Shown: positions 629 to 38,058 of the stretch, one piece after another
How the letters are laid out: every line of letters begins with the position of its first letter
How positions within the stretch are numbered: the first letter of the stretch is position 1
DNA from: a virus
Length of the DNA: 64,000 nucleotides
Reading direction: 5' to 3' (one strand)
IMG/VR virus record: IMGVR_UViG_3300049172_000080
Span: 1-64,000 of that record
The notes under the pieces: model-generated
Database searches by the model: none
Told to the model about the DNA's origin: nothing
What the model saw: the letters and a program-made list of their open reading frames with translations, nothing else
Position numbers and translations under genes: made by a program

Positions 629-662
629 GATTTATCTTAATCGGTATACCCCTGGCTGTCAC
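629..662 (-). promoter_or_regulatory. sigma70-type promoter overlapping a degenerate copy of the AT-rich 14-bp dyad
   Basis: Minus strand: GTGACA (662-657), 17-nt spacer, TAAGAT (639-634); dyad-like GATTTATCTTAATC at 629-642. Confidence 0.55.
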
Positions 663-964
663 GTCCCAAGCCCCGGCGACGTCAGCAGGCCCGAGGACCG
701 CACCAGCTCGCAGGCGTCGTCCACACCCAGGGGTTCCTTATCCGTGGCCAGGTGCGACGGAGTGAACCCAGACACCACCTGCAACGGCCCGCCGGGCGCG
801 GTGCCGGGCGGGCCGTGGGGTGTGCTCTTCAGTTCCATGTGATCTCGCAGCAGACGCTCATACGCCTCGCGCAGACAGGCGTATGAGCGTCGTAGATCCG
901 GAGTGGGGATGCGTTCCGCGCTGTGCCGGCCCATGCTGTCCGCCCTTCCGTCCGGCTCGGTCAA
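659..964 (-). CDS. hypothetical protein
   Basis: 101-aa ORF with coding-like GC3 in a leftward gene string; no domain recognised. Confidence 0.5.
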   Translation of the reverse strand: MTEPDGRADSMGRHSAERIPTPDLRRSYACLREAYERLLRDHMELKSTPHGPPGTAPGGPLQVVSGFTPSHLATDKEPLGVDDACELVRSSGLLTSPGLGT

Positions 965-1006
965 AGCCGGGGACGGTACCAGCGATCGGCGGTGTCGCCG
1001 AACGGG

Positions 1007-1477
1007 TTACTTCACCGCTCGGTTTTGCCAGGCGTCCCGCATCCCCGGGTCGAAAGAAGCGGCCTGCGACGCGGCCCGGGACGCCGGCGCGGTCAGGAAC
1101 GCATCCATGCCCCGGCGCGTGGTCAGCTTCTCCAGCACCTCATCTCCGGTGACCAGGCCCTCCCACTCGATGAAGTCCCTCTCCTCGGGAATGGTCGACG
1201 CCCCACGCTTGACCACCAGGTACGGCAGCGGCTCGGGGTTGCCCTCTTCGGAATCCACGGCGAAGATCCGAAGTTCCGTCCAGCGGCAGGTGGAGCAGTG
1301 GACCCCCTTGGGGGCGAACTCCGTGTCCGGGTGGTTCTGGTGCCGGGGCCGGAAACTGGACCCCATGCCCAGTAGCTCTCCGGTAATAGTGATCGACTGG
1401 CCGTGCTGGTCGGTAATCGTCCAGGTGCCGGCCTTGCCGACGGATCCCAGTCCGGGCAGGGGTGTGGGGCTCGTCAT
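1007..1477 (-). CDS. hypothetical protein
   Basis: ORF 1007..1522 trimmed to ATG 1477, which is preceded by GAGGAG; 156 aa; no domain recognised. Confidence 0.6.
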   Translation of the reverse strand: MTSPTPLPGLGSVGKAGTWTITDQHGQSITITGELLGMGSSFRPRHQNHPDTEFAPKGVHCSTCRWTELRIFAVDSEEGNPEPLPYLVVKRGASTIPEERDFIEWEGLVTGDEVLEKLTTRRGMDAFLTAPASRAASQAASFDPGMRDAWQNRAVK

Positions 1478-1593
1478 TGGTCTGCTCTCCTCAATCCGTG
1501 GTCCTGCTCCGAGCGTACCCACTGGGTAAACGTGCGCGTAGCCGAGTCCAGGCCGCGTCGGGAGCGTGGCGAGACAGCGTATCGGGTAAGTCT

Positions 1594-1607
1594 GATTTAG
1601 TGAAATG
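1594..1607 (+). promoter_or_regulatory. AT-rich dyad copy (GATTTAGTGAAATG) with extended -10-like TGATTTAGT
   Basis: Lies in the 86-bp divergent intergenic region upstream of the RuvC-like gene; member of the 14-copy dyad family. Confidence 0.45.
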
Positions 1608-1635
1608 AATGCGCCCAGATATGGAGGACCAAGGA

Positions 1636-2217
1636 ATGCGCATCATGGGGTGGGACCTGTCGATTACGTGCACCGGGGTGGCGTTCCCCGACGACTCCAC
1701 GGCCGTCATCAAGCCGCGCGGCAAGGGGTACAGCCGGCTGCTCGTGATCGAGGAACGTCTGTGCGCGGCTCTGCGTGTGGCCCGGCCGCAGCTCGTCGTG
1801 GTGGAGGACATCCGGGCCGGGCTGAAGGGCGACGCGGCCAAGGTCGTCCCGATGGTGCACGCGGTCGCTATCCTCGCTCTTGGGCGAGCCGGGGTCCCTT
1901 ACGCCTTGGTCAACGCGAAGACGCTGAAGCTGTACGCAACCGGCTACGGCGGTGGCTCCGATAAGGAGTCCATGGCGCTGGCTGCTCTCACCCGGGCCGG
2001 GCGGAAGTTCCCCGGCGACCCGGGCGGCGACCAGTGCGACGCGTGGTGGCTGCGGGCGGCCGGTCACGCCGCCTACGGCGAGCCTCTGGTCCAGATGCCC
2101 CAGCACAACATCGACGCGCTGCGCATGGTGGCCTGGCCAACTCTGCCTGAAGCGTTCCCGGTGTTCGCGCCGCCCGTACCGAAGCAGACCCGCCGCCGAC
2201 GGAAGGCGGCCGTCTGA
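1636..2217 (+). CDS. RuvC-like Holliday junction resolvase
   Basis: GWDLSITCTGVA, VVVEDI and DQCDAWW acidic motifs typical of the RuvC/RNase H fold; start set at ATG 1636 directly after a GACCAAGGA leader (the ORF opens at 1609). Confidence 0.75.
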   Translation: MRIMGWDLSITCTGVAFPDDSTAVIKPRGKGYSRLLVIEERLCAALRVARPQLVVVEDIRAGLKGDAAKVVPMVHAVAILALGRAGVPYALVNAKTLKLYATGYGGGSDKESMALAALTRAGRKFPGDPGGDQCDAWWLRAAGHAAYGEPLVQMPQHNIDALRMVAWPTLPEAFPVFAPPVPKQTRRRRKAAV

Positions 2218-2251
2218 CATGATGCCGACGCGGCCCTGGGCCGTACACACG

Positions 2252-2286
2252 GGAAGACCCCGAGCGCGCTCTGCTCGGGGTCTTCC
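2252..2286. terminator. bidirectional hairpin terminator between convergent genes
   Basis: Perfect 14-bp stem GGAAGACCCCGAGC/GCTCGGGGTCTTCC, 7-nt loop, followed by TTAT. Confidence 0.7.
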
Positions 2287-2306
2287 TTATGGGTGGTGCT
2301 GTGCGG

Positions 2307-2897
2307 TCAGCCGCCGAACGGGTCCGGCGCCTCGCCGCCCTCGCCGCCCTGCGCGAGGAACCCGGCCGCCTGGTGGCCGTTCTGGTCGGCTCGGGTGTAC
2401 TGCGCGGTGTGCGTGTGACCCCAGTTGTTCCCGTACTTGACGTCCTGGCCGCGAGTCACCCTGATGTACCCGCCGATCTCCGGAGCCCGGACACCGGCGT
2501 CACGCAGGGCCTTGCCGAGCGCCTTCTGCATGCTGCCCTTCACGTACAGGGTGCGCACACCGTCGTCGTCGGGGATCGGCTTCTCCACGTACCGGTTGGT
2601 CTCCCAGGTGACGCCGGTCGGCTGGCCCTGGATTTCGATGATGAGCTGCTCGACCGGCTTCGCGGACTGTGCGAACTTGAGCTTGGACTGCTCGACCTTC
2701 TCCTTCCCCTCCCAGAACAGCAGCTCGCCCGAGTCCTTGTCGGTCTGCTGCGCCATCCGGAAGGACAGGATGGTCCCCTCCACGACGAACCCGGGCTGGG
2801 GGAACTTCGCGGCGACGGTGCCCCCACCGAGGAACTGAGCCGCCTTGGCGGCATCAGCGCTGAAGGGGTCGGTCTGCGTCTGCGGTGCAGTGGTCAT
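2307..2897 (-). CDS. hypothetical protein, possible ssDNA-binding protein
   Basis: 196 aa from ATG 2897 (the longer ORF 5' extension reads as Arg/Pro junk); ends in an acidic ..GGEGGEAPDPFGG tail reminiscent of SSB C-terminal tips; sits next to the exonuclease; function tentative. Confidence 0.6.
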   Translation of the reverse strand: MTTAPQTQTDPFSADAAKAAQFLGGGTVAAKFPQPGFVVEGTILSFRMAQQTDKDSGELLFWEGKEKVEQSKLKFAQSAKPVEQLIIEIQGQPTGVTWETNRYVEKPIPDDDGVRTLYVKGSMQKALGKALRDAGVRAPEIGGYIRVTRGQDVKYGNNWGHTHTAQYTRADQNGHQAAGFLAQGGEGGEAPDPFGG

Positions 2898-2976
2898 GCC
2901 TGTGTCCTGTCTGCTGTGTTCCTGTGGCCTCCGCCGCCGGTGGCGAGGGAGGGGAGCCGGTGGAACGTGGCTCCGG

Positions 2977-3059
2977 TGCGCGGCCGGGTCTCGAACCCGG
3001 ATCTGTTGGACTGGATCGGGACAGTCCAACTGCTCTGTGCCTGTTGAGCTACCGCGCGT
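2977..3059 (-). ncRNA. tRNA-like element with aberrant anticodon arm
   Basis: 83 nt on the minus strand. Acceptor CGCGCGG/CCGCGCA (C1:A72 mismatch), U8, D arm GCTC-AACAGGCACA-GAGC, T arm CCGGG-TTCGAGA-CCCGG. The anticodon arm is a 9-bp stem GTTGGACTG/CAGTCCAAC with an 8-nt loop TCCCGATC. Confidence 0.45.
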
Positions 3060-3281: not shown

Positions 3282-3312
3282 ATGATACCCCGGAAGCTGA
3301 TTTAGTTAAACC
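3282..3312 (-). promoter_or_regulatory. candidate leftward promoter plus AT-rich dyad copy (GATTTAGTTAAACC, 3299-3312)
   Basis: Minus strand: TTAACT (3309-3304), 16-nt spacer, TATCAT (3287-3282); located just after the exonuclease stop and upstream of the tRNA-like element. Confidence 0.4.
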
Positions 3313-3316: not shown

Positions 3317-4588
3317 TCAGCCGCCGGGTTCGGAGAGTTCCTTGAGCCGGTTCTGCATGACGGCCACCAGCTCGTCCACCTCCTCGTCGGGCAGGCCAGC
3401 CTTCTTCGCCTCCTTCCACACCGCCGAGGCGTCGCCATTGGACGTGACCGCGAGGGCCTTGTCCTTGAGGGACGGCGGCCGGACCGTGGTCCGCGTGGTG
3501 ACGGCCGGCTCGGGCCGCTGCGGCGTGAATGTGTCCGCCGCCTCAGAGACCATGACCGGGGAGGCGAGGGTGCGCACCTTGCGCCACTCCCTGACCCGCT
3601 CGCACAGGATGGCCGCGTTCCAGCCGGACTCCAGGTCGACGCCGTAGACGGTCGGCGTCTTCTCGGACGTCTTGTCCACCGGCAGGTGGATGATGACCCC
3701 GGCGTCCGTGCGGACCTTCGTTCCAGGCTTGTCGAACCGGCTCAGCGGGTCCGGCTCCCAGACCTCGTCGTGCCGGTCCCACACGCCAGCCGTGTTGATG
3801 CCCTGCGCGTACGTGCTGAGCTGGATCGCGTGCTCTTGCCAGCCGTAGTCCAGGTCCCGGCCCGTCTTCTTGTCGCCGATCACGTACTCACCCGGCGCCA
3901 GCCGAACCTCCGCCCGCCCGATCTTCAGCACGAGCGGCTTGGTGACCTTGTAGCAGTTGTCCGAGGTCCCGGCGACGCCGTACTGCTTGACGACCGTGGT
4001 GAACTCGATGAGGTGAGGTACCGGTTCGAGCCCGGTCTCCTCCAGCAAGCGGATGTACGTCTCCACCATCTCGCGGCAGTCCGGCGGAATCTGGTCCATG
4101 ACGCTGCGCGGTCCACCAGGAGAGTGCCACGCCCGGTCCACCATCTCCGTAAAAGAGTGCATTGCGGTGCCGTCGTTGGCGGCCACCTTGGCACCGGCGG
4201 CGTCCTTCAGATCCGCCGTCAGCTCGTCCAGCAGTTTCTTGTCCTCCCGGACGTGCTTGCCGTGCGCCCGCCGCACGAGGTCCGGGCGCATCGTCGCCCC
4301 GAGCAGCGCCATGCGCAGGCCCCACTGGGACAGGGCGTACGTGTCGCTGATCGACTTGGCGAACGTCGTGGACCGGGTCCACGCGGTCTCCTTGCCGGTG
4401 TCCGGGTGCGGGATCAGGTACCGGCCGTACCGGTCGCGCTTGGTCTCCTTCTCACCGTGCGCGCCCGAGCCGCCGGCGAGGAACTGCGCCGCCGCGTCGG
4501 CCTGGTTCTGCGTCCCGTTCACCGCCGGGGCCGACGGCCGCCCGCTGCCGAGGAAGGCTGCTGCCGCCGCACTCTGGTCAGTCGTCAC
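3317..4588 (-). CDS. alternative model: stand-alone PD-(D/E)XK exonuclease from GTG 4588
   Basis: In-frame GTG at 4588-4586, 8 nt upstream of the stop of the embedded ORF 4578..4787; would give a 423-aa nuclease. Confidence 0.45.
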   Translation of the reverse strand: MTTDQSAAAAAFLGSGRPSAPAVNGTQNQADAAAQFLAGGSGAHGEKETKRDRYGRYLIPHPDTGKETAWTRSTTFAKSISDTYALSQWGLRMALLGATMRPDLVRRAHGKHVREDKKLLDELTADLKDAAGAKVAANDGTAMHSFTEMVDRAWHSPGGPRSVMDQIPPDCREMVETYIRLLEETGLEPVPHLIEFTTVVKQYGVAGTSDNCYKVTKPLVLKIGRAEVRLAPGEYVIGDKKTGRDLDYGWQEHAIQLSTYAQGINTAGVWDRHDEVWEPDPLSRFDKPGTKVRTDAGVIIHLPVDKTSEKTPTVYGVDLESGWNAAILCERVREWRKVRTLASPVMVSEAADTFTPQRPEPAVTTRTTVRPPSLKDKALAVTSNGDASAVWKEAKKAGLPDEEVDELVAVMQNRLKELSEPGG

Positions 4589-6415
4589 CGCAGCACTCCT
4601 GCCGTTCCCAGCCGCCCTCGCCGTCGGCGCGGATGATGTCACCGATTCCGATTTCGGCGAAACAGCTAGCGCACTCGCCTTCGTAGGAGGCTTCGAACCA
4701 GGGGCCAGGGCCGTCGTTGCCCTGGTCGTTGTCCGCGTCGATGCCGCCGAAGAACGCGGCAACGCCTCCGTCCTGTCGTCCGTGCATTCCTTGGTCTCCT
4801 GTTCCGTGGTCACCTCGGTCGCCGGGTCCCCAGCGCCGCAGTACTCGCAGAATGAGCCGCTGTGCCCGAACTTGCCGTCGTCACCCCAGGCGTAGCTGTG
4901 GCGGCACGGCGCGCGCTCCACCAGCTCGCCGAGGTTGGGCAGGTCACCAGTGCGGCCCTTGTGCGGGCCGTCCACGACGACCGCGTGCACCACGCCGTTG
5001 GTCTCGCCGGTGACGCGCATGAGCGTGCCGCGCCGGGTGAAGTGGTCGCCCTCGTCCAGCTCGCTAAGGCGTACCTGCGGGTCATCGCCGGGGCTGTACT
5101 GCCCGGGGGTGTAATCGTCGTCCGGGCAGCCGCATCCCGCGCGGTGCGTCTCCGGGTGCGGGCAGTTGGGCAGCTCCGGGTCGGGGCCGACCGGCTCCAC
5201 GTCCTCGGGGTCTACGGCGCCGCAGATCGTGCAGGTGCTGACAACGCGGTCCTGACCGTCCTCGTCCAAGTCGTCGGCCGTGCCCTGAAACCCGTTCGGG
5301 TGCGTGCACGTCTCCCGGGTGCACTGAGCACACGCTACGGTGCCGTGCGGGACGTCCGTGCCGCAGCCGGGGCACCGGTGGTTGTCTGTGTCGCACTTCT
5401 CGCAGTACACCCAGCCTGGGTGGATGCGGCGCCACGTCTCGCACTCCGGCGTTTCGCAGGTCTCCCGGGACCCGGGGTGCACCCACTCGACGCCCGACTC
5501 GTCCAGGTGCTTGTGGTTCAACTCCGGGTCGAGCGGGACGCCGAGGACGGCCGACGCGGTGCGGTCCATGTGGGCCGCCGTCTCCGCTTTCTTCTCCGGG
5601 CTGCGCTGCTCCAGCACCTTGATGGCCTTGTCCGTCAGCTCCGACATCCGCGCGTCCCGAGCCCGCTGCTCGTCGGTGCGGTAGTCCGGGGCGACGACGG
5701 CCGCCAGGCGCTCCTGCTCCGCCGTCGACAGCCCGCTGTTCGTCGCCAGGGCCGCGCCCATGAATTGTTCGGCCTCGGTCCGGGTGTCGCCGTCCATCGC
5801 GTCCAGGACCGTCCCGGCACCGGCGGTCTCCCGCTCCAGCAGCGCCGTGAGGGGCGAGGCCTTGAACCGTTCGGACATGGTCGGCTGCTGCACGGTCGCC
5901 TGGTCCACGCCCCACGGCGCTGCGCCGGTGCCCTCAGCCTCCGCCAGGGCATCCAGCTCGGCGTCGCTGACGGCCCCTCCGGCCGCGCCGTGGCAGCCGT
6001 AGCACTGGCCCACCTGGACGTGCTCGCACTGGGCGCGCAGCGTGGCGACGAGACCGTCCGTCGTGCCGACGAGGTCCGGGTAGGTGCCCAGCGGGAAGTC
6101 GGAACCGCCGGGGCACTGGCGGGGCGTCTGTTCGGTGGTGAGGTGGGACCGGACCCGGCCGTTGCCGGTGAGCTGCACCGGGTGCTTGCACAGGCGGCAC
6201 TGCGGCTGCTTCTCCCCGGCCTCCATGTCCTCGGCGAGGGCCAGCCCTGCCGCACCGGCCGGCGGCTGACCGACGCCCTTGCACTTGCGGCTGTCTGGCC
6301 CGGCCTGGAAGTCGGGGTTCTCGGTGAAGTGGTGGCGGATCGTCTTGTTCGCCGTGACGGTGTATTCGTTGCCGCACACGGAGCACGGCTTGCGCTCAGG
6401 GGTCGTCTGAGTCAT
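3317..6415 (-). CDS. uninterrupted 1032-codon ORF: Cys-rich multi-zinc-ribbon N-terminal region joined in frame to a PD-(D/E)XK (RecB/Cas4-like) exonuclease
   Basis: No stop codon in this frame between 6415 and 3317; many CxxC pairs in the N-terminal 530 aa; the C-terminal part has GTSDN..VIGDKKTG..AIQLSTYAQG nuclease motifs; the central ~70 codons are low-complexity. Confidence 0.6.
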   Translation of the reverse strand: MTQTTPERKPCSVCGNEYTVTANKTIRHHFTENPDFQAGPDSRKCKGVGQPPAGAAGLALAEDMEAGEKQPQCRLCKHPVQLTGNGRVRSHLTTEQTPRQCPGGSDFPLGTYPDLVGTTDGLVATLRAQCEHVQVGQCYGCHGAAGGAVSDAELDALAEAEGTGAAPWGVDQATVQQPTMSERFKASPLTALLERETAGAGTVLDAMDGDTRTEAEQFMGAALATNSGLSTAEQERLAAVVAPDYRTDEQRARDARMSELTDKAIKVLEQRSPEKKAETAAHMDRTASAVLGVPLDPELNHKHLDESGVEWVHPGSRETCETPECETWRRIHPGWVYCEKCDTDNHRCPGCGTDVPHGTVACAQCTRETCTHPNGFQGTADDLDEDGQDRVVSTCTICGAVDPEDVEPVGPDPELPNCPHPETHRAGCGCPDDDYTPGQYSPGDDPQVRLSELDEGDHFTRRGTLMRVTGETNGVVHAVVVDGPHKGRTGDLPNLGELVERAPCRHSYAWGDDGKFGHSGSFCEYCGAGDPATEVTTEQETKECTDDRTEALPRSSAASTRTTTRATTALAPGSKPPTKASALAVSPKSESVTSSAPTARAAGNGRSAAVTTDQSAAAAAFLGSGRPSAPAVNGTQNQADAAAQFLAGGSGAHGEKETKRDRYGRYLIPHPDTGKETAWTRSTTFAKSISDTYALSQWGLRMALLGATMRPDLVRRAHGKHVREDKKLLDELTADLKDAAGAKVAANDGTAMHSFTEMVDRAWHSPGGPRSVMDQIPPDCREMVETYIRLLEETGLEPVPHLIEFTTVVKQYGVAGTSDNCYKVTKPLVLKIGRAEVRLAPGEYVIGDKKTGRDLDYGWQEHAIQLSTYAQGINTAGVWDRHDEVWEPDPLSRFDKPGTKVRTDAGVIIHLPVDKTSEKTPTVYGVDLESGWNAAILCERVREWRKVRTLASPVMVSEAADTFTPQRPEPAVTTRTTVRPPSLKDKALAVTSNGDASAVWKEAKKAGLPDEEVDELVAVMQNRLKELSEPGG
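4578..4787 (-). CDS. small acidic Cys-containing protein encoded out of frame inside the 1032-codon ORF
   Basis: 69-aa ORF preceded by GGAGACCAAGGA directly abutting ATG, the identical 15-mer (with ATG) found before gene 6490..6858; the sequence (..WFEASYEGECASCFAEIGIGDIIRADGEGGWERQECCGDD) looks protein-like whereas the overlapping frame is low-complexity. Confidence 0.55.
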   Translation of the reverse strand: MHGRQDGGVAAFFGGIDADNDQGNDGPGPWFEASYEGECASCFAEIGIGDIIRADGEGGWERQECCGDD

Positions 6416-6489: not shown

Positions 6490-6858
6490 TCACTCGTCGG
6501 CTGCCTCGCGCGCCGTGATGAGTCCGTCCAGCCGCTCGGCGATGCGGTAGTCGTCGTCCAGACCGGACATGTAGAACGTGTGCCGCAGTTCCTTCAGCAC
6601 GCCGAGCACCTCGGCCCGGATGGCGGCCGTCACCGCAGAGTCGGGGCCCGTGACGGGCTTCTCCTCGAACGGGTTCTCCGCGTCCTCGGCGCGCTGTTCG
6701 TCGGCTTCGTCGCAGGCTCCTCGGTAGGCGTAGGCCTGGAAGTCGTACGTCACCGTGTCAAGGTCGGAATCCTCGCGACGCTCAGCGACCTCGCCCAACG
6801 TCTTTACCGCTAGGGCGACCTCTTCCCGAATGATCGCCCTGAGCCTTGCGTCGTCCAT
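6490..6858 (-). CDS. highly acidic early protein
   Basis: 122 aa with 31 Asp/Glu and 15 Arg/Lys counted by eye; GGAGACCAAGGA-ATG leader; first gene after the dyad at 6880. Confidence 0.75.
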   Translation of the reverse strand: MDDARLRAIIREEVALAVKTLGEVAERREDSDLDTVTYDFQAYAYRGACDEADEQRAEDAENPFEEKPVTGPDSAVTAAIRAEVLGVLKELRHTFYMSGLDDDYRIAERLDGLITAREAADE

Positions 6859-6879: not shown

Positions 6880-6919
6880 GGTTTAGCTAAATCATACCCC
6901 GGACGTCCGGGGAAGGAAA
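6880..6919 (-). promoter_or_regulatory. AT-rich dyad copy (GGTTTAGCTAAATC) with candidate leftward promoter
   Basis: Minus strand: TTTCCT (6919-6914), 17-nt spacer, TATGAT (6896-6891) fused to the dyad (6880-6893); 22 nt upstream of the gene 6490..6858 leader. Confidence 0.5.
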
Positions 6920-9612: not shown

Positions 9613-9775
9613 GAGTCCGTGATCCTCCCAGCGGGGTGCACAATCACCGAACTCGCACCTCACAAGGGAGGTGCGGGGACTGCGACGTCACCCCATCCGC
9701 GCCCGGCGTCCCGGGATTCCTTGGTCAGTGGTCGGCGGGGCGTCGTCGCGCCCCTATGTCCAGTATGGTACCCGT

Positions 9776-9825
9776 CGTGTAATCGTGTGTAAACGCGGGT
9801 ATCGTTGCTACACGTACTTACACAC
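9776..9825. promoter_or_regulatory. operator-like array of four CGTGTA(A) half-sites in the divergent early control region
   Basis: CGTGTAA (9776-9782) and CGTGTGTAA (9784-9792) face TACACG (9809-9814) and TTACACAC (9818-9825). Confidence 0.45.
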
Positions 9826-9840
9826 CATCAAGGAGGAGCA

Positions 9841-10065
9841 GTGGAAGAGTTCCTGACGGTCGCACAGGTGGCGGACCTCGCGGAGGTGCATCCGGGGTCC
9901 GTGTACCGGTGGCTGGACGATCCGGACGTGCCGCTGACCAAGCACAAGACGGCCAACGGCCGCGTCCGCATCCCCCGGGCCGAGGCCGAAACGTGGGTCC
10001 GGCTGCGCAACACGCCCGTCGTCGTCTCTGCCGCCTCCCCGGCCGTCTCGGGCGTCGGTGCGTGA
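9841..10065 (+). CDS. excisionase/MerR-type helix-turn-helix DNA-binding protein
   Basis: GTG 9841 preceded by AAGGAGGAG; LTVAQVADLAEVHPGSVYRWL..GRVRIPRAEAETW matches the Xis-family HTH pattern. Confidence 0.7.
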   Translation: MEEFLTVAQVADLAEVHPGSVYRWLDDPDVPLTKHKTANGRVRIPRAEAETWVRLRNTPVVVSAASPAVSGVGA

Positions 10066-15165: not shown

Positions 15166-15192
15166 ACGCGGCGCCGGGACAGCTCCGAGGGG

Positions 15193-26132: not shown

Positions 26133-27439
<1,307 letters not shown>

Positions 27440-27484: not shown

Positions 27485-27504
27485 GTCGTGTTTATACAAG
27501 AGAT

Positions 27505-27518
27505 GATTTAGGTAAACT
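27505..27518 (+). promoter_or_regulatory. AT-rich dyad copy (GATTTAGGTAAACT) upstream of the terminase
   Basis: Preceded by TGTTTATAC and TGA; within the 150-bp non-coding leader of terL. Confidence 0.45.
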
Positions 27519-27637
27519 GACTCTTGAGACCGGGCTCGCTACAGCCCGACTTCAGGAACACCGCCCCGACGGGTTTCCGGGACGGCGTTTCGCGTTCTCC
27601 AGCGGCCTGCCACCCTGCCAGGGAGGCAGGCCGCTTT

Positions 27638-29893: not shown

Positions 29894-29900
29894 CGCGGGG

Positions 29901-29935
29901 TTGTCCGGTCGCCGGAGCCATGGTTTAATTAATTC
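29901..29935 (+). promoter_or_regulatory. consensus early promoter with embedded AT-rich dyad
   Basis: TTGTCC (29901-29906), 17 nt, TTTAAT (29924-29929); dyad GGTTTAATTAATTC 29922-29935; GACCAAGGAA at 29947. Confidence 0.7.
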
Positions 29936-29963: not shown

Positions 29964-30338
29964 ATGAAAATGACCAAGGGCCAGCAGTTCGCGAAGACCA
30001 TGCGGATCACCCTCGACATCGGCACCCGCACCCGTCGCTACCGCAAGGGCGTCGACCTGCACGCCGCGATCCTGGATGCGATCAACGAGACCAACCTCTA
30101 CCCAGGCTGCCGTAGCGAGCAAACGGAAGCCATCCTCCGCACCGCCTACGGGGCCTGGATGTCCTACCAGAAGCACATTGCGGGCTACCGCGTTGACGGT
30201 GCCCTGATCGCCCACGTCAAGGCTTTGACTCCGTACCGGTTCTGCGCCCTGCTCGGCGACATGGTCGACGCCGACATCACCAACGTCGGCGAGGGCGAAC
30301 AGTTCTTCGTACAGATGCGCGCGGAGCTGGCCGCTTGA
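29964..30338 (+). CDS. hypothetical protein
   Basis: 124-aa ORF with its own promoter and terminator. Confidence 0.7.
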   Translation: MKMTKGQQFAKTMRITLDIGTRTRRYRKGVDLHAAILDAINETNLYPGCRSEQTEAILRTAYGAWMSYQKHIAGYRVDGALIAHVKALTPYRFCALLGDMVDADITNVGEGEQFFVQMRAELAA

Positions 30339-31699: not shown

Positions 31700-32950
31700 A
31701 TGACCGACACCACCACATCGCTCCCGGTCTACGAGCGCCGGGACATCCCCGAGCAGCACCGGCACCTGCGCACGATGACGGAGCTGAAAGCCGACCGCCT
31801 GAAGCCGGCCGAAGGGCAGCAGCCCGTGGCACTGGTCCGGGTGTACCGGCGCGGCCACGGCTGGGGCGAATTCCCCCTGTATGACCCCGCTGGTGCGGCG
31901 AAGATGCGCCCGCTGTCCGCCAAGCAGCAGCGTGCCATCGAGGCCCGGCGGACCTGCCCGGAGTGCAATGAGGTGCGCGGATACGTCGTCTACATCAGGT
32001 GTAACGACTGCCGGGCGAAGGCGCAGCAGGAGGCGCAGGACCGGCAGGCGCGCACCTGCGAGCGGTGCAGGCGCGAGGCCGGGGCCGCGCTGCCGAAGGA
32101 CGTGCATGGCTGGCCGGCGTGCGATCCGTGCCGGATCCGCTACGCCATTTGCAAGCAACTCGCCGATGAGCGAGCGGCCGTGTGGCGCCGTACCTGCCCC
32201 GGATATCCGGGCCACGACTGCACGGTGGAGACCGCGACGGATGACGAGATCACCGAAGCATGGAACGCCGGGGACTACACCGGGCCCTGGCGGTGTCCGC
32301 CGTGCGGCGAGGCGTATGAGCGGTGGTACGAGGCTCAGCGCCACCAGGTCGGGGAGACGCGGGAGCGGCAGGTGGCCGGGCTGTCCGCATGGGCGCGGGA
32401 CGCTCTCGCCGACCCGGCCGTGGTCGTCCTGGACACGGAGACGACCGGGCTGCACGACGGGGCACGCATCGTCGACCTGGCTGTGCTGACCGTCGGCGGG
32501 GACGTCCTCGTGAACACGTTGCTCGACCCGGGCGAGCCGATCCCGGCCGAGGCGACGGACATCCACGGCATCACCGACGTGGACGTCCAGGGCCAGCCCC
32601 GGTTCGGGGACGTCCTGGTGCAGCTCACCGGGGCGCTCGTCAACCGCCGGTGTCTGATCTACAACGACACGTTCGACGTCGGCCGGCTGCGCCACGAACT
32701 GACGATGCACTACCGCGAGGCCGGCCACGGCGACCCGGCTGCCTCGGCAGCCGCGTGGCTGGAGACGATGCGGTTCGAGGACGTGATGATGCCGTACTCG
32801 GACTGGTACGGGGAGTGGTCGGACTACCACGGGAACTACTGCTGGCAGCCGCTGTTCGGCGGGGACCACCGGGCCGCGTCGGACTGCCGCGCGGTGCTGG
32901 ACCGACTGCGCGAGATGGCGGCTGGGGTTGCTGACCCGGCTGAGGCATGA
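31700..32950 (+). CDS. DnaQ-like DEDDh 3'-5' exonuclease with a Cys-rich N-terminal region
   Basis: VVLDTETTGL (Exo I), YNDTFDVGRL (Exo II), HRAASDC (Exo III); N-terminal CPECN..CNDC..CERC..CDPC pairs. Confidence 0.8.
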   Translation: MTDTTTSLPVYERRDIPEQHRHLRTMTELKADRLKPAEGQQPVALVRVYRRGHGWGEFPLYDPAGAAKMRPLSAKQQRAIEARRTCPECNEVRGYVVYIRCNDCRAKAQQEAQDRQARTCERCRREAGAALPKDVHGWPACDPCRIRYAICKQLADERAAVWRRTCPGYPGHDCTVETATDDEITEAWNAGDYTGPWRCPPCGEAYERWYEAQRHQVGETRERQVAGLSAWARDALADPAVVVLDTETTGLHDGARIVDLAVLTVGGDVLVNTLLDPGEPIPAEATDIHGITDVDVQGQPRFGDVLVQLTGALVNRRCLIYNDTFDVGRLRHELTMHYREAGHGDPAASAAAWLETMRFEDVMMPYSDWYGEWSDYHGNYCWQPLFGGDHRAASDCRAVLDRLREMAAGVADPAEA

Positions 32951-32962
32951 TTTAATCAAATC
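32928..32962 (+). promoter_or_regulatory. consensus early promoter with embedded AT-rich dyad
   Basis: TTGCTG (32928-32933), 17 nt, TTTAAT (32951-32956); dyad GATTTAATCAAATC 32949-32962; overlaps the exonuclease stop; GACCAAGGAA at 32972. Confidence 0.65.
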
Positions 32963-32993: not shown

Positions 32994-33281
32994 ATGGACG
33001 AAGCGCAGGCAGCGTTGGAAGGCGCGATCCGCAAAGCTGTGCCGGGGGACGGGGTGGACGCGATCGTCAACCTGATCGGCCCGCTGGTGGACGAGATTCG
33101 CCGCGACCAAGCCAAACGGGACGCTGACGTGCTGCGGCGGATGTCCGAGCGCAGCCCGAACACCACGCCGCCCCGGGGCGGCACGAACAGCCGCATGGTC
33201 TTCGGCACCGCTGCGCAGATGCTGGACCCCGACGGGGAGGGTTGGGGGCTGAACCTCCCGGACCACCTCAAGGACGCCTGA
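32994..33281 (+). CDS. hypothetical protein
   Basis: 95 aa from ATG 32994. Confidence 0.6.
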   Translation: MDEAQAALEGAIRKAVPGDGVDAIVNLIGPLVDEIRRDQAKRDADVLRRMSERSPNTTPPRGGTNSRMVFGTAAQMLDPDGEGWGLNLPDHLKDA

Positions 33282-33297: not shown

Positions 33298-33323
33298 GCC
33301 CCGGAGTCTCGTGACTCCGGGGC
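33298..33323. terminator. bidirectional hairpin terminator between convergent genes
   Basis: 11-bp stem GCCCCGGAGTC/GACTCCGGGGC, 4-nt loop, then TTCGTCGTG. Confidence 0.7.
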
Positions 33324-33332: not shown

Positions 33333-34433
33333 TCACAGGAACCGGTCGACCAGGCCCTCGTATACCTTCACGGCCGCCGCCGCGTGCGTGCGCTTGAGCG
33401 CCTCGTCGTCCCGGCGACGGATGTAGCGCATCGTCGTGGAAATGTGGCTGTGGTCGGCGAACCGGCGGATATCGTCCGGCGTTGGCTTCCCGTCCTTCGA
33501 CGCCAGACCCTCGTCGTACATGTGGGTCAGCTTGCTGGCCCTCAGGACATGCGGGGTGAGGTCCCGGCCCGGCAGCACACCGGCCGCACGGCCGAGGCGG
33601 TTCAACAGCCGGTCCACGGCGTGCCGGTCCATCGGCCGGCCGCCGTCATCGAGCAGCAGGTGCCCGGAGGTGCGGCCCTCCCAGCACACCGCGCCCAGCT
33701 CGCACAGCTTCGGCGGAAGGGTGAACTTCCGGCCCTTGCCGCCCTTGCGGGTCAGGTCCAGCTTGCACTCCCCGCCGGACGGCTTCATGTGCTGCATCCC
33801 GGCCGCGCAGCACTCCGAGACGCGGCCGGCCAGCGTGTAGATGAGCACCGGCACGAGGGCCTGGCGCGGGGTCTGCGCCTGCTCCACCACAGCCTGGAAC
33901 TCAGGCACTTCGAGGATCGGCGTCATCGCCGCCTCGTCGTGCTGGTCGATCACCGGCCGGTCGTACCGGGTGATGGGGTTGATGATCTCCAGCCGGGTAC
34001 GGAACTTGGTGTACTCGATCAGCGAAGTCAGCGAGGACACCAGCCGGTTGACCCGGCGCGGCCCGAGCCCGATGTCCGTGGTCCAGGCCCTCCAGGCCGG
34101 GATGACGTCGGGGGTGATCGCCCCGAGGTACCAGGGCTCAGTACCGACCAGCTCCCGGGCGGCGCGTGCCCAGTGGCGGACGTCGTCGGCGTACTCGCGC
34201 CGGGTGCCGTCGCTCAGCCTCTCGGAGTTCAACCACCCCACCACGTGCTCGAACGTCTCGGGTGCGCACAGCTCGTGAAGCAGGTCGAGCCGGTGGACGC
34301 GCGGCCCGAGCCGGCGGTTCCTCGGGTCGCGCGGGGCGACCGTGCCCAGTTTCTCGCGCAGGCCCAGCACGGTACGCAGCGCCGCGTTCCCGTCGGCCGC
34401 GATGGTGGTGGGCTCGGTTGGAGCGAGTGTCAC
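33333..34433 (-). CDS. int: tyrosine integrase
   Basis: LAGRVSE (Arg), HVLRAS (HxxR), ADHSHISTTMRYI (His..Tyr); start set at the GTG with a GTGA overlap onto the upstream stop. Confidence 0.85.
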   Translation of the reverse strand: MTLAPTEPTTIAADGNAALRTVLGLREKLGTVAPRDPRNRRLGPRVHRLDLLHELCAPETFEHVVGWLNSERLSDGTRREYADDVRHWARAARELVGTEPWYLGAITPDVIPAWRAWTTDIGLGPRRVNRLVSSLTSLIEYTKFRTRLEIINPITRYDRPVIDQHDEAAMTPILEVPEFQAVVEQAQTPRQALVPVLIYTLAGRVSECCAAGMQHMKPSGGECKLDLTRKGGKGRKFTLPPKLCELGAVCWEGRTSGHLLLDDGGRPMDRHAVDRLLNRLGRAAGVLPGRDLTPHVLRASKLTHMYDEGLASKDGKPTPDDIRRFADHSHISTTMRYIRRRDDEALKRTHAAAAVKVYEGLVDRFL

Positions 34434-35092: not shown

Positions 35093-35196
35093 GCGCTGAG
35101 CCTACCCGGGACCATGATCACGTGGACGCAAAACACACGTTTTGCGCTTCGCCCAGAGCGATTCTGCGAGAACGACGTTCTGTGCCATCCTCCGGG

Positions 35197-35231
35197 TTGT
35201 CCTCTGCGAGATCCCATGGTTTAATTAATTC
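35197..35231 (+). promoter_or_regulatory. consensus early promoter with embedded AT-rich dyad
   Basis: TTGTCC (35197-35202), 17 nt, TTTAAT (35220-35225); dyad GGTTTAATTAATTC 35218-35231; TCATCGGGCAGG leader; GACCAAGGAA at 35257. Confidence 0.7.
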
Positions 35232-35279: not shown

Positions 35280-35732
35280 GTGACTCGACGCGAGATGTCC
35301 AAGACGGAGCGCGCGGCCCGCGACGCAATGAAGCCCTACATCCGCGAGGGCCTCATCAGCCAGGGCGAGGCGAACAAGACGATCCGCGACAGCCTCGCCC
35401 TGGTGGAGAAGACCGTCCGGGACAACTACTCACCGGATCAGGCGTTCTACTACGCGGGCAAGATCGCAACGGCGCGCGAGGCGTTCGAGGCGCAGGAGAA
35501 CCCCGTGGTGCGTATCATCCTCCGGGGCAAACTGATGGGCTGGGAGATGTACGCGGCCGTCTACGTGGTGGTCCGCGAGGAGCACGGCGACACGGACGTC
35601 CCGATGGACCAGGCCGTGGAGACCATGGCCACCATCCGCGACACCGCGCGGGAGATGCGGACGGAGTCGCAGGCCTTCAAGGACATCGTCCGTGAGACCG
35701 AGCTGACGGCACCTGTGGAGGCCGCGCGATGA
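35280..35732 (+). CDS. hypothetical protein
   Basis: 150-aa ORF, GTG start. Confidence 0.65.
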   Translation: MTRREMSKTERAARDAMKPYIREGLISQGEANKTIRDSLALVEKTVRDNYSPDQAFYYAGKIATAREAFEAQENPVVRIILRGKLMGWEMYAAVYVVVREEHGDTDVPMDQAVETMATIRDTAREMRTESQAFKDIVRETELTAPVEAAR

Positions 35733-36250
35733 CCACACCCGAACGCCGCAGGGCGGACCGTCTCCAGGAGCAGGCCGACCGGCTCACGGCCAGGGCTGAG
35801 GGGATGCGCGAGCGGGCAGACGGCATGTACGGCCGGTTCGCCGGCGGACAGCCGCTGCTCGTCGGCCACCACTCCTACCGCTCCGCCCGGCGGACGAAGA
35901 ACCGTGCGGACGCGGCGTCCGACCGGGCGCTGGCCGCGTACACCGAGGCGAAGCAGGCACAGGCCAACGCGAAGTACGCCAAGGCCAAGGCGGACGCGAA
36001 GGACTCAATAGTCGAGAAGGTGTCCGCCCGGACCCGGCCGTGGCAGCGCTCGGATTTCCGGGTGGGCGACATCGTCACCGTGCGCACCTTCGAGACCGGT
36101 CAGGACACCTACCGGGTGAAGAGGGTCAACGCCAAGACGCTGACGCTGGACGGCGGCGGAGGTGGCTGGGACGACCCCCGCCGCGAGTACGACCGAGTCC
36201 TGTCCCGCACCCGGGACGGCGTCACCATCACCGACCCGGCCGAAGTCTGA
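35729..36250 (+). CDS. DUF3560-like protein
   Basis: ATGA overlap; GQPLLVGHHSYRSARR motif recalled from DUF3560; 173 aa. Confidence 0.6.
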   Translation: MTTPERRRADRLQEQADRLTARAEGMRERADGMYGRFAGGQPLLVGHHSYRSARRTKNRADAASDRALAAYTEAKQAQANAKYAKAKADAKDSIVEKVSARTRPWQRSDFRVGDIVTVRTFETGQDTYRVKRVNAKTLTLDGGGGGWDDPRREYDRVLSRTRDGVTITDPAEV

Positions 36251-36254
36251 CGGG

Positions 36255-36289
36255 TTGTGCCCCTGCCCGGACCATGATTTAATTAAGTC
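36255..36289 (+). promoter_or_regulatory. consensus early promoter with embedded AT-rich dyad
   Basis: TTGTGC (36255-36260), 17 nt, TTTAAT (36278-36283); dyad GATTTAATTAAGTC 36276-36289; TCATCGGGCAGG leader; GACCAAGGAA at 36309. Confidence 0.7.
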
Positions 36290-36332: not shown

Positions 36333-36695
36333 ATGAACGCCACCGCCACCCGCGCCGCCTCCTCCACCATGATCCGCATTGCCGCCGTCCTGCGTGAGCA
36401 CGAGGCGCTGCTGGCCAAGTACGGCGTGCACGGCATCGTCGGCGTCATCGCCTACATCACCGCCGACGGCTACGGCCGCCGCTACGACGCCGACAGCCCC
36501 CTGCCCGCCCTGGCCGTCCGCATCGGCCGCATCGGCTCCCACGTCGCCGGCGTCCGCCGCGTCAACCGCCGCATCGTCCAGACCCACGAGGTGAGCGAGG
36601 CCCGCATGCGCGACGGCATGCTGCTCCAGGACATCGCCAACACCCTCGACTCCCTGCGCATGGGCGGCGGGCCTGTCGGCCGCGTCAGCGCCTGA
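36333..36695 (+). CDS. hypothetical protein
   Basis: 120 aa from ATG 36333. Confidence 0.65.
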   Translation: MNATATRAASSTMIRIAAVLREHEALLAKYGVHGIVGVIAYITADGYGRRYDADSPLPALAVRIGRIGSHVAGVRRVNRRIVQTHEVSEARMRDGMLLQDIANTLDSLRMGGGPVGRVSA

Positions 36696-36703: not shown

Positions 36704-36749
36704 ACGACGAAGCCCCGGGACTCCACCACAGGTCCCGGGGCTTCGTCGT
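36704..36749. terminator. bidirectional hairpin terminator
   Basis: Perfect 18-bp stem ACGACGAAGCCCCGGGAC/GTCCCGGGGCTTCGTCGT, 10-nt loop, between convergent genes. Confidence 0.75.
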
Positions 36750-36758: not shown

Positions 36759-37139
36759 TTACACGAGCCAGTGCCGGCCACCAGCCGCACCGAAGGCGCC
36801 GACGTACACCTGGTGCGTGTAGTCGCCGGACTGCCAGCGTGTGCCCGCAGTGCCCGCGATGAAGCGATGGCACGTACGTTCGATAATACGGCGTAGCTCG
36901 GGGAACTGAAGGTTCAAGAGCAGACCCGACAGCTCCACCCCTTCCGGAGCGGGCAGGGCCGCCGCGTCCTCGTCCCCGGTCGCCTCGTGCACGGCGGCCC
37001 GGATGGCCAGGACGCGGACCGCGTCGGCCATGCTCCCGGCGACGTCCGGCATCTCCGGGTCAGCCATCCACCGGCCGTGGATCTCTGCCGCGCGGCAAGC
37101 GGTCATCGTGACGTCGGACAGAGTGCTGGTGGCGGCCAT
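36759..37139 (-). CDS. hypothetical protein (divergent from the GntR regulator)
   Basis: 126-aa ORF; SD GGAGGA. Confidence 0.65.
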   Translation of the reverse strand: MAATSTLSDVTMTACRAAEIHGRWMADPEMPDVAGSMADAVRVLAIRAAVHEATGDEDAAALPAPEGVELSGLLLNLQFPELRRIIERTCHRFIAGTAGTRWQSGDYTHQVYVGAFGAAGGRHWLV

Positions 37140-37155
37140 GCGGTCCTCCGTGTGT

Positions 37156-37169
37156 GATTTATCGAATTC
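37156..37169. promoter_or_regulatory. AT-rich dyad copy (GATTTATCGAATTC)
   Basis: In the divergent 140-bp region between 37139 and 37280. Confidence 0.4.
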
Positions 37170-37188
37170 ATGGGCATGCCCCTGTGAG

Positions 37189-37221
37189 ACTTCCTACAGG
37201 AAGCACCCTCCTGTAGGAAGT
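37189..37221. promoter_or_regulatory. perfect 13-bp inverted repeat, candidate GntR/HutC operator
   Basis: ACTTCCTACAGGA (37189-37201), 7-bp spacer, TCCTGTAGGAAGT (37209-37221). Confidence 0.6.
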
Positions 37222-37246
37222 TAGGGCACCGTTCCGGTACCGTCAA
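37218..37246 (-). promoter_or_regulatory. sigma70-type promoter for gene 36759..37139
   Basis: Minus strand: TTGACG (37246-37241), 17 nt, TAACTT (37223-37218); the -10 overlaps the right arm of the inverted repeat. Confidence 0.5.
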
Positions 37247-37279
37247 CCACATCCGATAGGAAGACCCGAGGAGCTAAGC

Positions 37280-37957
37280 ATGGCTGGCACCGTGGCACGC
37301 ATGGTCAATTACCTGAAAGCGCGCGTTGACCTGGGAACACTGAAGCCTGGCGACCGACTGCCACCCACCACCGCACTGATGAAGCAGTTCATGATCAGCG
37401 ACAACGCGGTCTACCGGGGAATCGCGCTCTTGAAGGCCGAGGGCTACGTCACCTCCCAGCAGGGCAAGGGGGTGTTCGTCGCCGACCGCCGCCGGCTCAT
37501 CGTGGGTGAGAAGCGGATCCAGGGCATTACGCAAGCCGGTGAGACGATCAACCACAAGCGCAGCGAACGCGTGCAGGCGCCGGACTGGGTCGCCGAGTTC
37601 CTCGGGGAGGGCGAGTGCGTGAATCGCGTTCGTACCGTGAGCCGTGGGGACGCGGTCGTGCAGGCGTCGCAGTCGTGGGTGCACCTCGCGGTTGCCGACG
37701 TCGTTCCCGAGATCGATGAGCCCCAGGCCTGCGACCCGACCTGGCAAGCCGTTTACCAGGACCGCTCGGGCAACCCCGTGAAGGTGGCGTCCAAGACGGG
37801 CATCGTCCGCACCACCACGGACGAGGAGCGTGAGGAGTTCGGCCTGGACGCCGACCGGGAGGTGCTGGCCGTCCGTAGCATCTACGTCACCGGCAATACG
37901 GTGATCGGTGTCGGCGAGGCCGCGTACGCGCCGGATAACCCTTTGATCATGTCCTGA
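37280..37957 (+). CDS. GntR-family transcriptional regulator (HutC/UTRA type)
   Basis: LKPGDRLPPTTALMKQFMISDNAVYRGIALLKAEGYVTSQQGKGVFV wHTH, plus a ~150-aa C-terminal effector-like domain. Confidence 0.8.
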   Translation: MAGTVARMVNYLKARVDLGTLKPGDRLPPTTALMKQFMISDNAVYRGIALLKAEGYVTSQQGKGVFVADRRRLIVGEKRIQGITQAGETINHKRSERVQAPDWVAEFLGEGECVNRVRTVSRGDAVVQASQSWVHLAVADVVPEIDEPQACDPTWQAVYQDRSGNPVKVASKTGIVRTTTDEEREEFGLDADREVLAVRSIYVTGNTVIGVGEAAYAPDNPLIMS

Positions 37958-37978
37958 GAGCGCATGCGTGCCCCACCC

Positions 37979-38009
37979 GAGCCCCGGAGCCTTCACGCTC
38001 CGGGGTTTC
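37979..38009 (+). terminator. hairpin terminator (left copy of the repeat flanking the RiPP cassette)
   Basis: GCCCCGGAGC/GCTCCGGGGT stem, 6-nt loop, TTCGTTGTGT. Confidence 0.65.
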
Positions 38010-38023
38010 GTTGTGTCGGAGAG

Positions 38024-38058
38024 TTGCATGCATCACACAACTGTGGTTTAATTAATCC
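38024..38058 (+). promoter_or_regulatory. consensus early promoter with embedded AT-rich dyad (drives the RiPP cassette)
   Basis: TTGCAT (38024-38029), 17 nt, TTTAAT (38047-38052); dyad GGTTTAATTAATCC 38045-38058. Confidence 0.65.

Follow-up and report, generated by a model that had tools for sequence, protein, structure and literature searches.

The control of many dispersed operators by a single repressor is a well-known regulatory scheme, with phages P1, L5 and phiC31 and plasmid RK2 among its representatives. In the phage-plasmid P1, the C1 repressor is thought to act at many scattered operators, many of which overlap promoters, with maintenance functions being expressed. Phage phiC31 has near-identical early promoters, a repeated inverted repeat thought to bind the repressor (c gene), and tail-less terminators. 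The stoperators of mycobacteriophage L5 (gp71) are asymmetric and orientation-dependent and act on elongation inside transcription units, and in RK2 the KorA operator OA overlaps the -10 of several promoters. Here, we analyse a stretch of 64,000 nucleotides (nt) of viral DNA (positions 1 to 64,000 of IMG/VR record IMGVR_UViG_3300049172_000080; hereafter the window), which represents about two thirds of a Streptomyces phage-plasmid of ~90-100 kilobases (kb) and carries 14 copies of a palindromic, AT-rich dyad. The dyad is a real and strongly conserved cis-regulatory sequence and, judging from its features, very probably the operator of a regulator encoded by the element. As such it is a new instance of the scheme, not a new principle.

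The closest complete relative is plasmid pS1D4-14.2 of Streptomyces sp. S1D4-14 (98,815 base pairs, bp), which is ~80% identical to the window over long stretches and has genes for ParA, a ParB-family protein, a tyrosine recombinase, and portal, capsid and tape-measure proteins. At least 12 IMG/VR contigs of 89-99 kb are members of the same phage-plasmid family. Among INPHARED phages there is no near-identical DNA to the window, and a distant search of that collection returned a single shared gene, with phage Gilgamesh. To our knowledge, Streptomyces phage-plasmids have barely been studied, and nothing is known about the silencing of 90-100 kb of phage genes during plasmid replication; in the literature, we found neither the dyad motif nor the regulation of this family described.

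The dyad is strongly enriched in intergenic DNA

The window has a G+C content of 67-72% and was divided by a gene map built from codon usage (74 genes) into 56.6 kb of coding and 5.1 kb of intergenic DNA. The palindromic search pattern GRTTTANNTAAAYC matches it three times exactly, nine times with one mismatch and twice with two mismatches, which recovers exactly the 14 sites of the initial annotation, every 14-mer with its sequence and coordinate as listed there and all 14 in intergenic DNA, as had been claimed. Allowing three mismatches adds only three matches (10274, 41472 and 50325), all within coding sequence. A check independent of the palindromic pattern gave the same set: the hexamer GRTTTA occurs 14 times on the plus strand of the whole 64 kb, each time as part of one of the 14 sites. 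The consensus is y-GRTTTA-NN-TAAAYC-r or, with flanks, the 18-bp AT-GRTTTA-NN-TAAAYC-AT; ATGGTTTAATTAAACCAT denotes the dyad as a probe sequence, set apart from the natural sites.

This frequency is far above chance. Against a composition-matched null, for which each intergenic segment was shuffled separately with its dinucleotides preserved, we observed 12 intergenic sites with at most one mismatch where a mean of 0.006 was expected, and 14 with at most two mismatches where 0.14 were expected; the enrichment check proposed in the initial annotation thus came out in its favour. Coding DNA contains zero sites at this looser threshold. Because the shuffles were made segment by segment and coding DNA is empty, the enrichment does not merely reflect AT-richer intergenic DNA.

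In pS1D4-14.2 there are 24 dyad sites with at most two mismatches, among them orthologues of eight window sites. The other copies lie mostly in two arms where small genes occupy the minus strand (0-25 kb and 81-99 kb), and the arms with most copies are outside or at the left edge of the window; the structural block (49-84 kb) has no dyad. This bears on the distribution within the window. Confinement of the sites to the first 38 kb holds there, no site being found beyond 38058, but it is an effect of the window, given where the pS1D4-14.2 copies lie. The accompanying labels of an early region and of a late region at 40-64 kb are inaccurate, because the genes for the terminase large subunit and the lysin fall within the supposedly early 38 kb; the targets include terminase, lysin-operon and regulator genes, and the early label is a window artefact.

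Conservation and symmetry across the family

Across 614 kb of family loci (given here as L numbers) we counted 199 non-redundant dyad sites. The dyad is conserved in at least 12 related elements, with the half-sites kept and the centre and flanks varying. Within orthologous groups, GRTTT and AAAYC are fixed and the central 2-4 nt vary (AACA/AGCA, AAGA/AAGG/AGGA, AACT/AATT). The 19-mer GGTTTAATTAATTCATCGG, searched against the 2.9 million contigs of IMG/VR, was found in 26 stretches on 12 contigs, all of this family. The distant relatives L152 and L154 keep the dyad at equivalent places, and an unrelated Streptomyces atratus phage-plasmid (99 kb, 68.7% G+C) has 0 sites.

The site is also two-fold symmetric. 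Setting aside one large promoter class described below (class I), the group-weighted matrix reads y-G-R-T-T-T-A-N-N-T-A-A-A-Y-C-r and correlates with its own reverse complement at r 0.97 over 22 columns, and at 0.81 over the unselected flanks alone, which have T/C at position 0 and A/G at position 15.

These properties bear on the idea that the dyads are nucleation sites for a host nucleoid protein or xenogeneic silencer (Lsr2-like), or for another host regulator of short AT islands. Such an idea finds some footing in the nature of the sites, islands of 14 AT-rich bp within a genome of 68% GC that lie at promoters of horizontally mobile DNA, and in the RGR minor-groove hook by which Lsr2-type proteins contact AT-rich DNA. 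The conserved outer G/C positions, the fixed 2-nt centre and the dyad symmetry, however, go beyond mere AT-richness, and the unrelated phage-plasmid lacks any such site, so we regard this explanation as very unlikely. As for an Lsr2 encoded by the element, no Lsr2 domain was found when 50 window proteins were compared with Pfam, a set drawn from the window only and from genes other than those of the structural region and a few very small early open reading frames.

The dyad lies on several kinds of putative promoter

The initial annotation had the dyad embed the -10 of one repeated early promoter. That type accounts for no more than 6 of the 14 sites in the window; the others stand beside a GGGTAY box, act as the -35 or occur in tandem. 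With all -10, -35 and promoter assignments made by consensus only, the dyad appears as a module on the core of at least three promoter kinds across the family.

Class I comprises 93 family copies and, in the window, sites 15214, 29922, 32949, 35218 and 36276, with 38045 as a variant. The module consists of GGGG-TTG-Y-N-C, 12 nt, y-A-T, the dyad, A-T-c-g-g-g and then usually a GACCAAGGAA leader, and the dyad starts 2 nt before TTTAAT. Its flanks, examined in 84 copies at positions that played no part in site selection, have A at -1 (69/84), T at 0 (83/84), A at +15 (77/84) and T at +16 (59/84) and thus extend the palindrome to 18 bp. The right half departs from symmetry in the same copies (position 12: T in 48, A in 22, G in 14; position 13: T in 74). 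The geometry initially described for these six sites, TTG(T/C)nn followed by 17 nt and TTTAAT, holds in 6/6, but the CATG(G/A) ending of the spacer in only 5/6, since 38045 ends CTGTGG.

Which sigma factor might read class I? The call of TTTAAT as a sigma70 -10 is doubtful. TTGYNC, a 17-nt spacer and TG are present; absent is the A at -10 position 2, which housekeeping hexamers almost always have and for which TTTAAT has T. A sigma70 consensus scan that demanded this A (and T at position 6) found 0 promoters in 25-40 kb. An alternative hexamer, yATGRT, has A2 and T6 but lies only 12 nt from TTGYNC. Class I was also rejected as a SigB-type promoter, the gap from GTTTAA to GGG being only 10 nt, and as a sigma28-type promoter, the conserved partner box of which was not found. 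In a related group (L040 6768, L121 3880, L129 6147 and L117 4021), the same GGGGTTGTCC box as in class I is followed after 17 nt by TATGAT, and the dyad begins at the fourth base of this hexamer, 5 nt farther from the -35 box than in class I.

The recurrent leader noted initially is borne out: GACCAAGGAA occurs 14 times in the window, mostly in 5' leaders (for example at 1627, 6867 on the minus strand, 10568, 10583, 15254, 29947, 32972, 35257 and 36309). It stands 8-17 nt upstream of start codons or abuts the ATG, and pairing of its GACC part with the 3' end of 16S rRNA provides no explanation. Many transcription units are followed by GC-rich hairpins, CCCCGGAG...CTCCGGGG and then CTTCG, without a T-tail (17667-17689, 33299-33322, 36714-36739, 37982-38005 and 39510-39533; in pS1D4-14.2 at 84174, 90597 and 93584). 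In several relatives the hairpin loop consists of TTGCNN, the -35 box of the class I promoter that follows, so that terminator and promoter overlap.

In class II, the dyad is preceded at a distance of 0-6 nt (mostly 3-4) by a GGG(T/C)A(N) hexamer, as is the case in 20 of the 37 non-class-I groups. In the window these are sites 629, 1594 and 6880 and, more weakly, 37156 (GGGCAT-N6-dyad). At 629, GGGTAT (646-651, minus strand) lies 3 nt upstream of the dyad in the context GCTTGG-N14-GGGTAT-acc-dyad; the 14-mer is invariant in nine family members, with varying flanks, and the arrangement is kept in the distant L152 and L154. At 1594, GGGTAA (1584-1589) lies 4 nt upstream (GCGTGG-N14-GGGTAA-gtct-dyad), and GGGTAW-N4-dyad is kept by the orthologues in pS1D4-14.2 (15732), L120, L131, L132, L135, L137 and L138. 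Site 6880, kept in pS1D4-14.2 at 21601, abuts GGGTAT (6894-6899, minus strand), with GTTTCC 15 nt further upstream (GTTTCC-N15-GGGTAT-dyad). The weak site 37156 is kept in L128, and pS1D4-14.2 has no copy with at most two mismatches at the equivalent place.

In class III the dyad itself supplies the upstream box. This class includes window site 3299, nine orthologues and site 5216 of L152: GTTTAA within the dyad (3306-3311, minus strand) precedes GGGTAT (3285-3290, minus strand) by 15 nt, and GGTTTAAYTAAATC-N8/9-GGGTATCAT is kept in nine family loci, with like geometry in L152. Three non-class-I groups are of this type, the dyad supplying GTTTAN 15-16 nt before GGGTAN.

Nine SigB homologues of S. 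coelicolor have the promoter consensus GTTTAA-N12-14-GGG(A/T)A(A/T), with GTTTCC-N13-GGGTAT and GCTTGG-N13-GGGTAG as examples (PMC8346170). At the level of sequence, the class II and III boxes match this SigB-homologue (group 3 sigma) consensus: sites 629, 1594, 3299 and 6880 each combine GTTTNN or GNNTNN, a spacer of 12-15 nt and GGG(T/A/C)A(N).

Finally, a tandem pair of dyads (25160 and 25184) lies upstream of a gene with multiple helix-turn-helix (HTH) motifs. Both copies are kept in 11/11 family loci examined; 25184 is invariant including its flanks, and 25160 lies across family loci in a perfect palindrome of 20-22 bp, GATGGTTTA(A/G)CAAAACCATC. The ~115-nt leader from the pair to the start of the gene (25198-25310) is almost invariant in 11 elements (equivalents in L139-L149) and contains a strong hairpin, GGGCCCCGG...CCCGGGGCCC, with a minimum free energy (MFE) of -51.6 kcal/mol (z = -2.1), which makes the leader a possible attenuator or target of antitermination. 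Rfam has no family match anywhere in the window, this leader included.

Given its intimate association with promoters, the AT-rich 14-mer might be an intrinsic promoter element, that is a -10, discriminator or melting region for a particular host or element sigma factor, with no operator protein involved. The dyad always lies at or beside putative promoter cores; the 93 class I copies are almost invariant and asymmetric, with TG-N-TTTAAT 17 nt from TTGYNC; the failure of the sigma70 scan on these promoters makes a non-housekeeping sigma conceivable; and gene 25311-26132 has a weak sigma-region-4-like PHROG match. Yet no single sigma element fits a 14-mer that occupies -14 to -1 in class I, lies 5 nt downstream of this register in the L040 group, past GGGTAY and over the presumed transcription start in class II and at the -35 in class III; the non-class-I sites and their flanks are two-fold symmetric, and the tandem pair includes a perfect palindrome. 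We consider an intrinsic element unlikely. Occurrence in so many registers relative to the TTGYNC, TATGAT and GGGTAY boxes is hard to fit to one RNA polymerase recognition element and points to a separately evolving protein-binding module, and variable register and two-fold symmetry together favour an operator over a -10 element. On balance we think it likely that the dyad serves as the operator for a single DNA-binding protein, sequence-specific and probably dimeric, that the element encodes. From the initial proposal of a promoter set that shares one operator, the conserved, operator-like dyad on promoter cores is thus retained, but it is distributed over several architectures rather than one early promoter.

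Candidate DNA-binding proteins

Which protein might read the dyad? PGAP annotation of pS1D4-14.2 contains only three conserved HTH genes, the counterparts of 329-592, 9841-10065 and 25311-26132. The first of these, listed as 329-598 among the initial candidates, ranks best. It encodes a protein of 87 amino acids (aa) that is seen only in this phage-plasmid family; its 62 homologue clusters all have at least 47% identity, and those on long contigs are on contigs of the family's size. An AlphaFold2 (AF2) model (predicted local distance difference test, pLDDT, 81) consists of a minimal winged helix after a disordered N-terminal arm, and the best Foldseek matches are ArsR, MarR and Z-alpha winged helices. 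Invariant among the homologues are the AT-hook-like arm R8-G-R-P-R-P13 as well as L53 and L55-D-R-L-R59 of the recognition helix, T(Y/W)L(S/A)LDRLR. The promoter of the gene carries a slightly off-consensus dyad, GATTAAGRTAAATC, that is invariant in every relative, distant ones included. In L152 and L154, with homologues of 47-56% overall identity, the RGRPRP arm, the recognition helix and the dyad are all unchanged. Provided that the binder is encoded by the element, these sequence features place 329-592 first, with a chance that we judge to be somewhat short of even.

The second candidate, 25311-26132, may be a binder or a tightly controlled target. The first two of its HTH repeats, recognition helices included, vary between orthologues and the third is conserved, with the dyad constant. 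It was rejected as a sigma factor, with no sigma domains in Pfam and no PDB match. This gene also figures in the alternative that the dyad binds an element-encoded activator or dual-function regulator that switches promoters on at a certain stage. Class I and II promoters depart from the housekeeping consensus and might need help, and the multi-HTH gene heads the lysis and packaging region and owns a double site; but sites centred on -10/+1 are in the classical position for steric repression rather than activation, and recognition helices that vary while the dyad stays constant speak against this protein as its reader. We hold an activator to be quite unlikely.

The two other initial candidates fared less well. 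No dyad lies near 9841-10065. The GntR gene 37280-37957 was rejected as a binder, being absent from pS1D4-14.2 with its 24 sites and found in one other family locus only; site 37156 is directed towards the divergent gene 36759-37139 instead. The place of the GntR gene is taken in pS1D4-14.2 by an XRE-family gene, which points to a slot where regulators can be exchanged. Two palindromes that lie side by side at 37190-37220, CTTCCTACAGGAAG and CTCCTGTAGGAAG, between the divergent gene and the GntR/UTRA gene, are probably the GntR protein's own operators.

A putative operator for silencing during plasmid maintenance

The site-bearing units of the window are the winged-helix gene 329-592, the RuvC-like gene, the tRNA-like gene with 2307-2897, 6490-6858 with a 1032-aa protein, the 15274-17646 operon, the multi-HTH regulator that leads the lysin region, the terminase (by a copy specific to the window) and five small units at 29.9-39.5 kb. 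No dyad is found in the window at the divergent region 9613-9840 (helicase and primase-polymerase operons), the ParB-like/DNA-modification operon, the recombinase or the whole structural operon. Region 9613-9840 has other repeats, GTGTAATCG, GTGTAAACG and ACACGTACTTACACAC, together with a GGGTAT box, and the replication genes there are probably under a separate control system.

How might the dyad act? We envision a separable module laid over the -10/+1 region (once over the -35) of at least three promoter architectures. With the dyad on promoter cores, its occupancy would block RNA polymerase, at 13 transcription units in the window and at 20-30 per complete element, and a double operator would guard the gene of the multi-HTH regulator at the front of the lysin-terminase region. 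The protein would thereby keep accessory and lytic-entry genes off during maintenance while replication and maintenance genes run, a scenario that fits the pattern of site-bearing and site-free genes as judged from position. The binder would most likely be the autoregulated winged-helix protein 329-592, the RGRPRP arm of which could read the AT-rich minor groove at the dyad centre.

Several observations count against this scenario, or at least against parts of it. Overlap with promoters suggests repression without proving its sign. The palindromic search pattern builds in part of the core symmetry and is to that extent circular, although this does not apply to the flanks. Most class I copies read TAATTC and not TAAAYC, as would also be expected of a purely promoter-determined sequence, and no intergenic GGGTTGY box of the window occurs without a dyad, so that the class I dyad and its box are inseparable within the window. 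As for the binder, 329-592, 9841-10065 and 25311-26132 all accompany the dyad in every relative examined, and co-occurrence therefore singles out none of them; nor does the unrelated S. atratus phage-plasmid discriminate between them, as it has neither the dyad nor any of the three genes. All relatives keep the same dyad and all 62 clusters the same recognition helix. The binder could, moreover, be encoded outside the window or by the host.

Alternatively, the dyads may be centromere-like (parS) or replication sites of the ParB-like protein 17769-18605, with a secondary, KorB-like (plasmid RK2) effect on transcription. The element has a ParB-like gene, its relatives have ParA, and the half-site TTTAG resembles the KorB (TTTAGCCGCTAAA) and KorA (GTTTAGCTAAAC) operators (PMC2680271). 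The sites, however, are dispersed one per promoter and not grouped near par genes, the ParB-like gene is in an operon with DNA-modification genes and has no dyad nearby, and the likeness to the RK2 operators does not extend beyond a short AT-rich half-site. We judge a parS role to be extremely improbable.

Returning to the operator, a more far-reaching combination can be conceived, in which the dyad is the master operator of an undescribed maintenance-versus-lytic switch, read by the winged helix with the RGRPRP arm and overlaid by two further layers. In the first, a host SigB-type stress or developmental sigma would drive the regulator's own promoter and left-arm genes, which would tie derepression to host stress or sporulation. 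In the second, a thymidine-hypermodification cassette would alter the operator, which is T-rich and could be a substrate, once the DNA is replicated or in virions; genomes so modified would evade the repressor, and the unmodified plasmid would be silent. We give this combination as a whole a very slim chance.

Four of five consecutive genes at 18602-22746 resemble a post-replicative thymidine-hypermodification cassette: an amino-acid:DNA transferase (ADDT), a pyridoxal phosphate (PLP)-dependent enzyme, P-loop nucleotide kinase 3 and a Tet/JBP 2-oxoglutarate (2OG)-Fe oxygenase. The fifth, 19687-20415, has no Pfam match. The ParB-like gene lies upstream of the cassette and a sugar epimerase/dehydratase gene (24067-25149) downstream.

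For the dyad to be more than a new instance of a known scheme, its link to SigB-type promoters or to DNA hypermodification would have to prove functional. It offers a testable handle, namely a single sequence of 18 bp with a single small candidate protein and, in the window, ~13 target transcription units, and the strong, compact and co-regulated promoter, leader and terminator modules might serve as genetic tools in Streptomyces.

Other features of the window

Coordinates are collected in Table 1. Site 27505 lies in an insertion of ~150 bp (27491-27650) that is absent from relatives L141 and L145. After the dyad comes a highly structured stretch of ~110 nt (MFE -65.8 kcal/mol, z = -3.95), closed by a terminator-like hairpin with a T-run, GCGGCCTGCC...GGCAGGCCGC-TTTGTG; located immediately before the terminase gene, the stretch is a candidate for a small RNA gene controlled by the dyad. 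The large subunit of the terminase is itself split by a Hint/intein domain (Pfam Hint_2, residues 149-186) between its N- and C-terminal terminase domains.

The 1032-aa protein 3317-6415 (minus strand), the promoter of which carries a dyad, is kept in size and position in all relatives, with 1072-1280 aa in distant ones. Its homologue in one distant relative has a faint LAGLIDADG match; the window protein, considered as a hidden RNA polymerase, has no sequence match in Pfam or PDB. Downstream of the class III promoter at 3299, 2975-3058 (minus strand) is a tRNA-like gene ('tRNA-???' in ARAGORN), the anticodon region of which is abnormal and the counterpart of which is called as a 96-97 nt tRNA-Arg(CCG) in two relatives. 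The genes under the 38045 promoter (38210-39489) encode an 89-aa protein with a weak match, below the Pfam cut-off, to Strep_pep (a ribosomally synthesised peptide family), followed by a 335-aa protein with a faint ATP-grasp match, and may form a small peptide-modification cassette.

Table 1. Positions of the dyad copies, candidate binders and other genes in the window
Feature	Position	Strand	Remarks
Dyad copy A	629-642	-	GATTAAGATAAATC on minus strand; promoter of winged-helix gene 329-592
Dyad copy B	1594-1607	+	precedes RuvC-like gene 1636-2217
Dyad copy C	3299-3312	-	reads towards tRNA-like gene and gene 2307-2897
Dyad copy D	6880-6893	-	precedes genes 6490-6858 and 3317-6415
Dyad, class I	15214-15227	+	box GGGTTGTCC 15190-15198; precedes operon from 15274; pS1D4-14.2 orthologue 31334
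Dyad, tandem pair, first	25160-25173	.	within perfect palindrome TGATGGTTTAGCAAAACCATCA; upstream of multi-HTH gene 25311-26132
Dyad, tandem pair, second	25184-25197	.	GGGGATTTAACTAAATGAGAG; 24 bp centre-to-centre from first
Dyad	27505-27518	+	in ~150 bp window-specific insertion upstream of terminase gene
Dyad, class I	29922-29935	+	box GGGTTGTCC 29898-29906; precedes gene 29964-30338
Dyad, class I	32949-32962	+	box GGGTTGCTG 32925-32933; precedes gene 32994-33281; pS1D4-14.2 orthologue 48263
Dyad, class I	35218-35231	+	box GGGTTGTCC 35194-35202; precedes genes 35280-36250
Dyad, class I	36276-36289	+	box GGGTTGTGC 36252-36260; precedes gene 36333-36695
Dyad, weak (2 mismatches)	37156-37169	-	6 nt downstream of GGGCAT (37176-37181, minus strand); faces gene 36759-37139
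Dyad, class I variant	38045-38058	+	box GAGTTGCAT 38021-38029; precedes genes 38210-39489
Best candidate binder, 87-aa minimal winged-helix protein	329-592	-	Pfam HTH_24, HTH_20
Second candidate binder, or tightly controlled target	25311-26132	+	273 aa; three LuxR/GerE-like HTH repeats and WhiB-like Cys motif
Helicase	6892-8541		
Primase-polymerase fusion	10607-14950		
ParB-like protein	17769-18605		
DNA-modification cassette	18602-22746		
Lysin	26190-27236		
Terminase large subunit, intein-containing	27674-29893		
Integrase-type recombinase	33333-34433		
Structural operon	from ~39.7 kb		

Relation to known regulatory systems

The arrangement shares with P1 the logic of a plasmid prophage, with one repressor and dispersed operators. 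It differs from P1 in its components: the P1 operators are asymmetric 17-mers and C1 is much larger, whereas our element has a two-fold symmetric site of 14-18 bp and, as its candidate reader, an 87-aa winged-helix protein. With phiC31 it has in common the Streptomyces host, many copies of a highly conserved promoter with a repeated inverted repeat, and terminators that lack a tail. The sequences are different, however, and the genomes unrelated (no INPHARED DNA match), and in our element the dyad lies within the promoter core and also on SigB-type promoters. As in L5, an actinobacteriophage, 20-30 copies of one short site occupy short intergenic gaps, but the dyads are not stoperators, because they are symmetric and located at promoters.

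The comparison with IncP plasmids RK2/RP4 concerns the site as well as its presumed reader. The RK2/RP4 operators are 5'-GTTTAGCTAAAC-3' for KorA (OA) and TTTAGCCGCTAAA for KorB (PMC2680271), and site 6880 (GGTTTAGCTAAATC) matches OA at 11/12 positions. Both systems would employ a small HTH protein as global repressor of a plasmid backbone, acting at a short AT-rich palindrome. Homology to KorA was nevertheless rejected: a profile of the 329-592 family, run against PDB sequences with expect values (E) up to 10, found MarR, Lrp and PadR winged helices and no KorA, which makes KorA an analogy rather than a fellow family member. The candidate here is an ArsR/MarR-type winged helix, and host phylum and element type differ. 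By analogy, then, the resemblance to KorA is one in the way of working, joined by a short coincidence of sequence.

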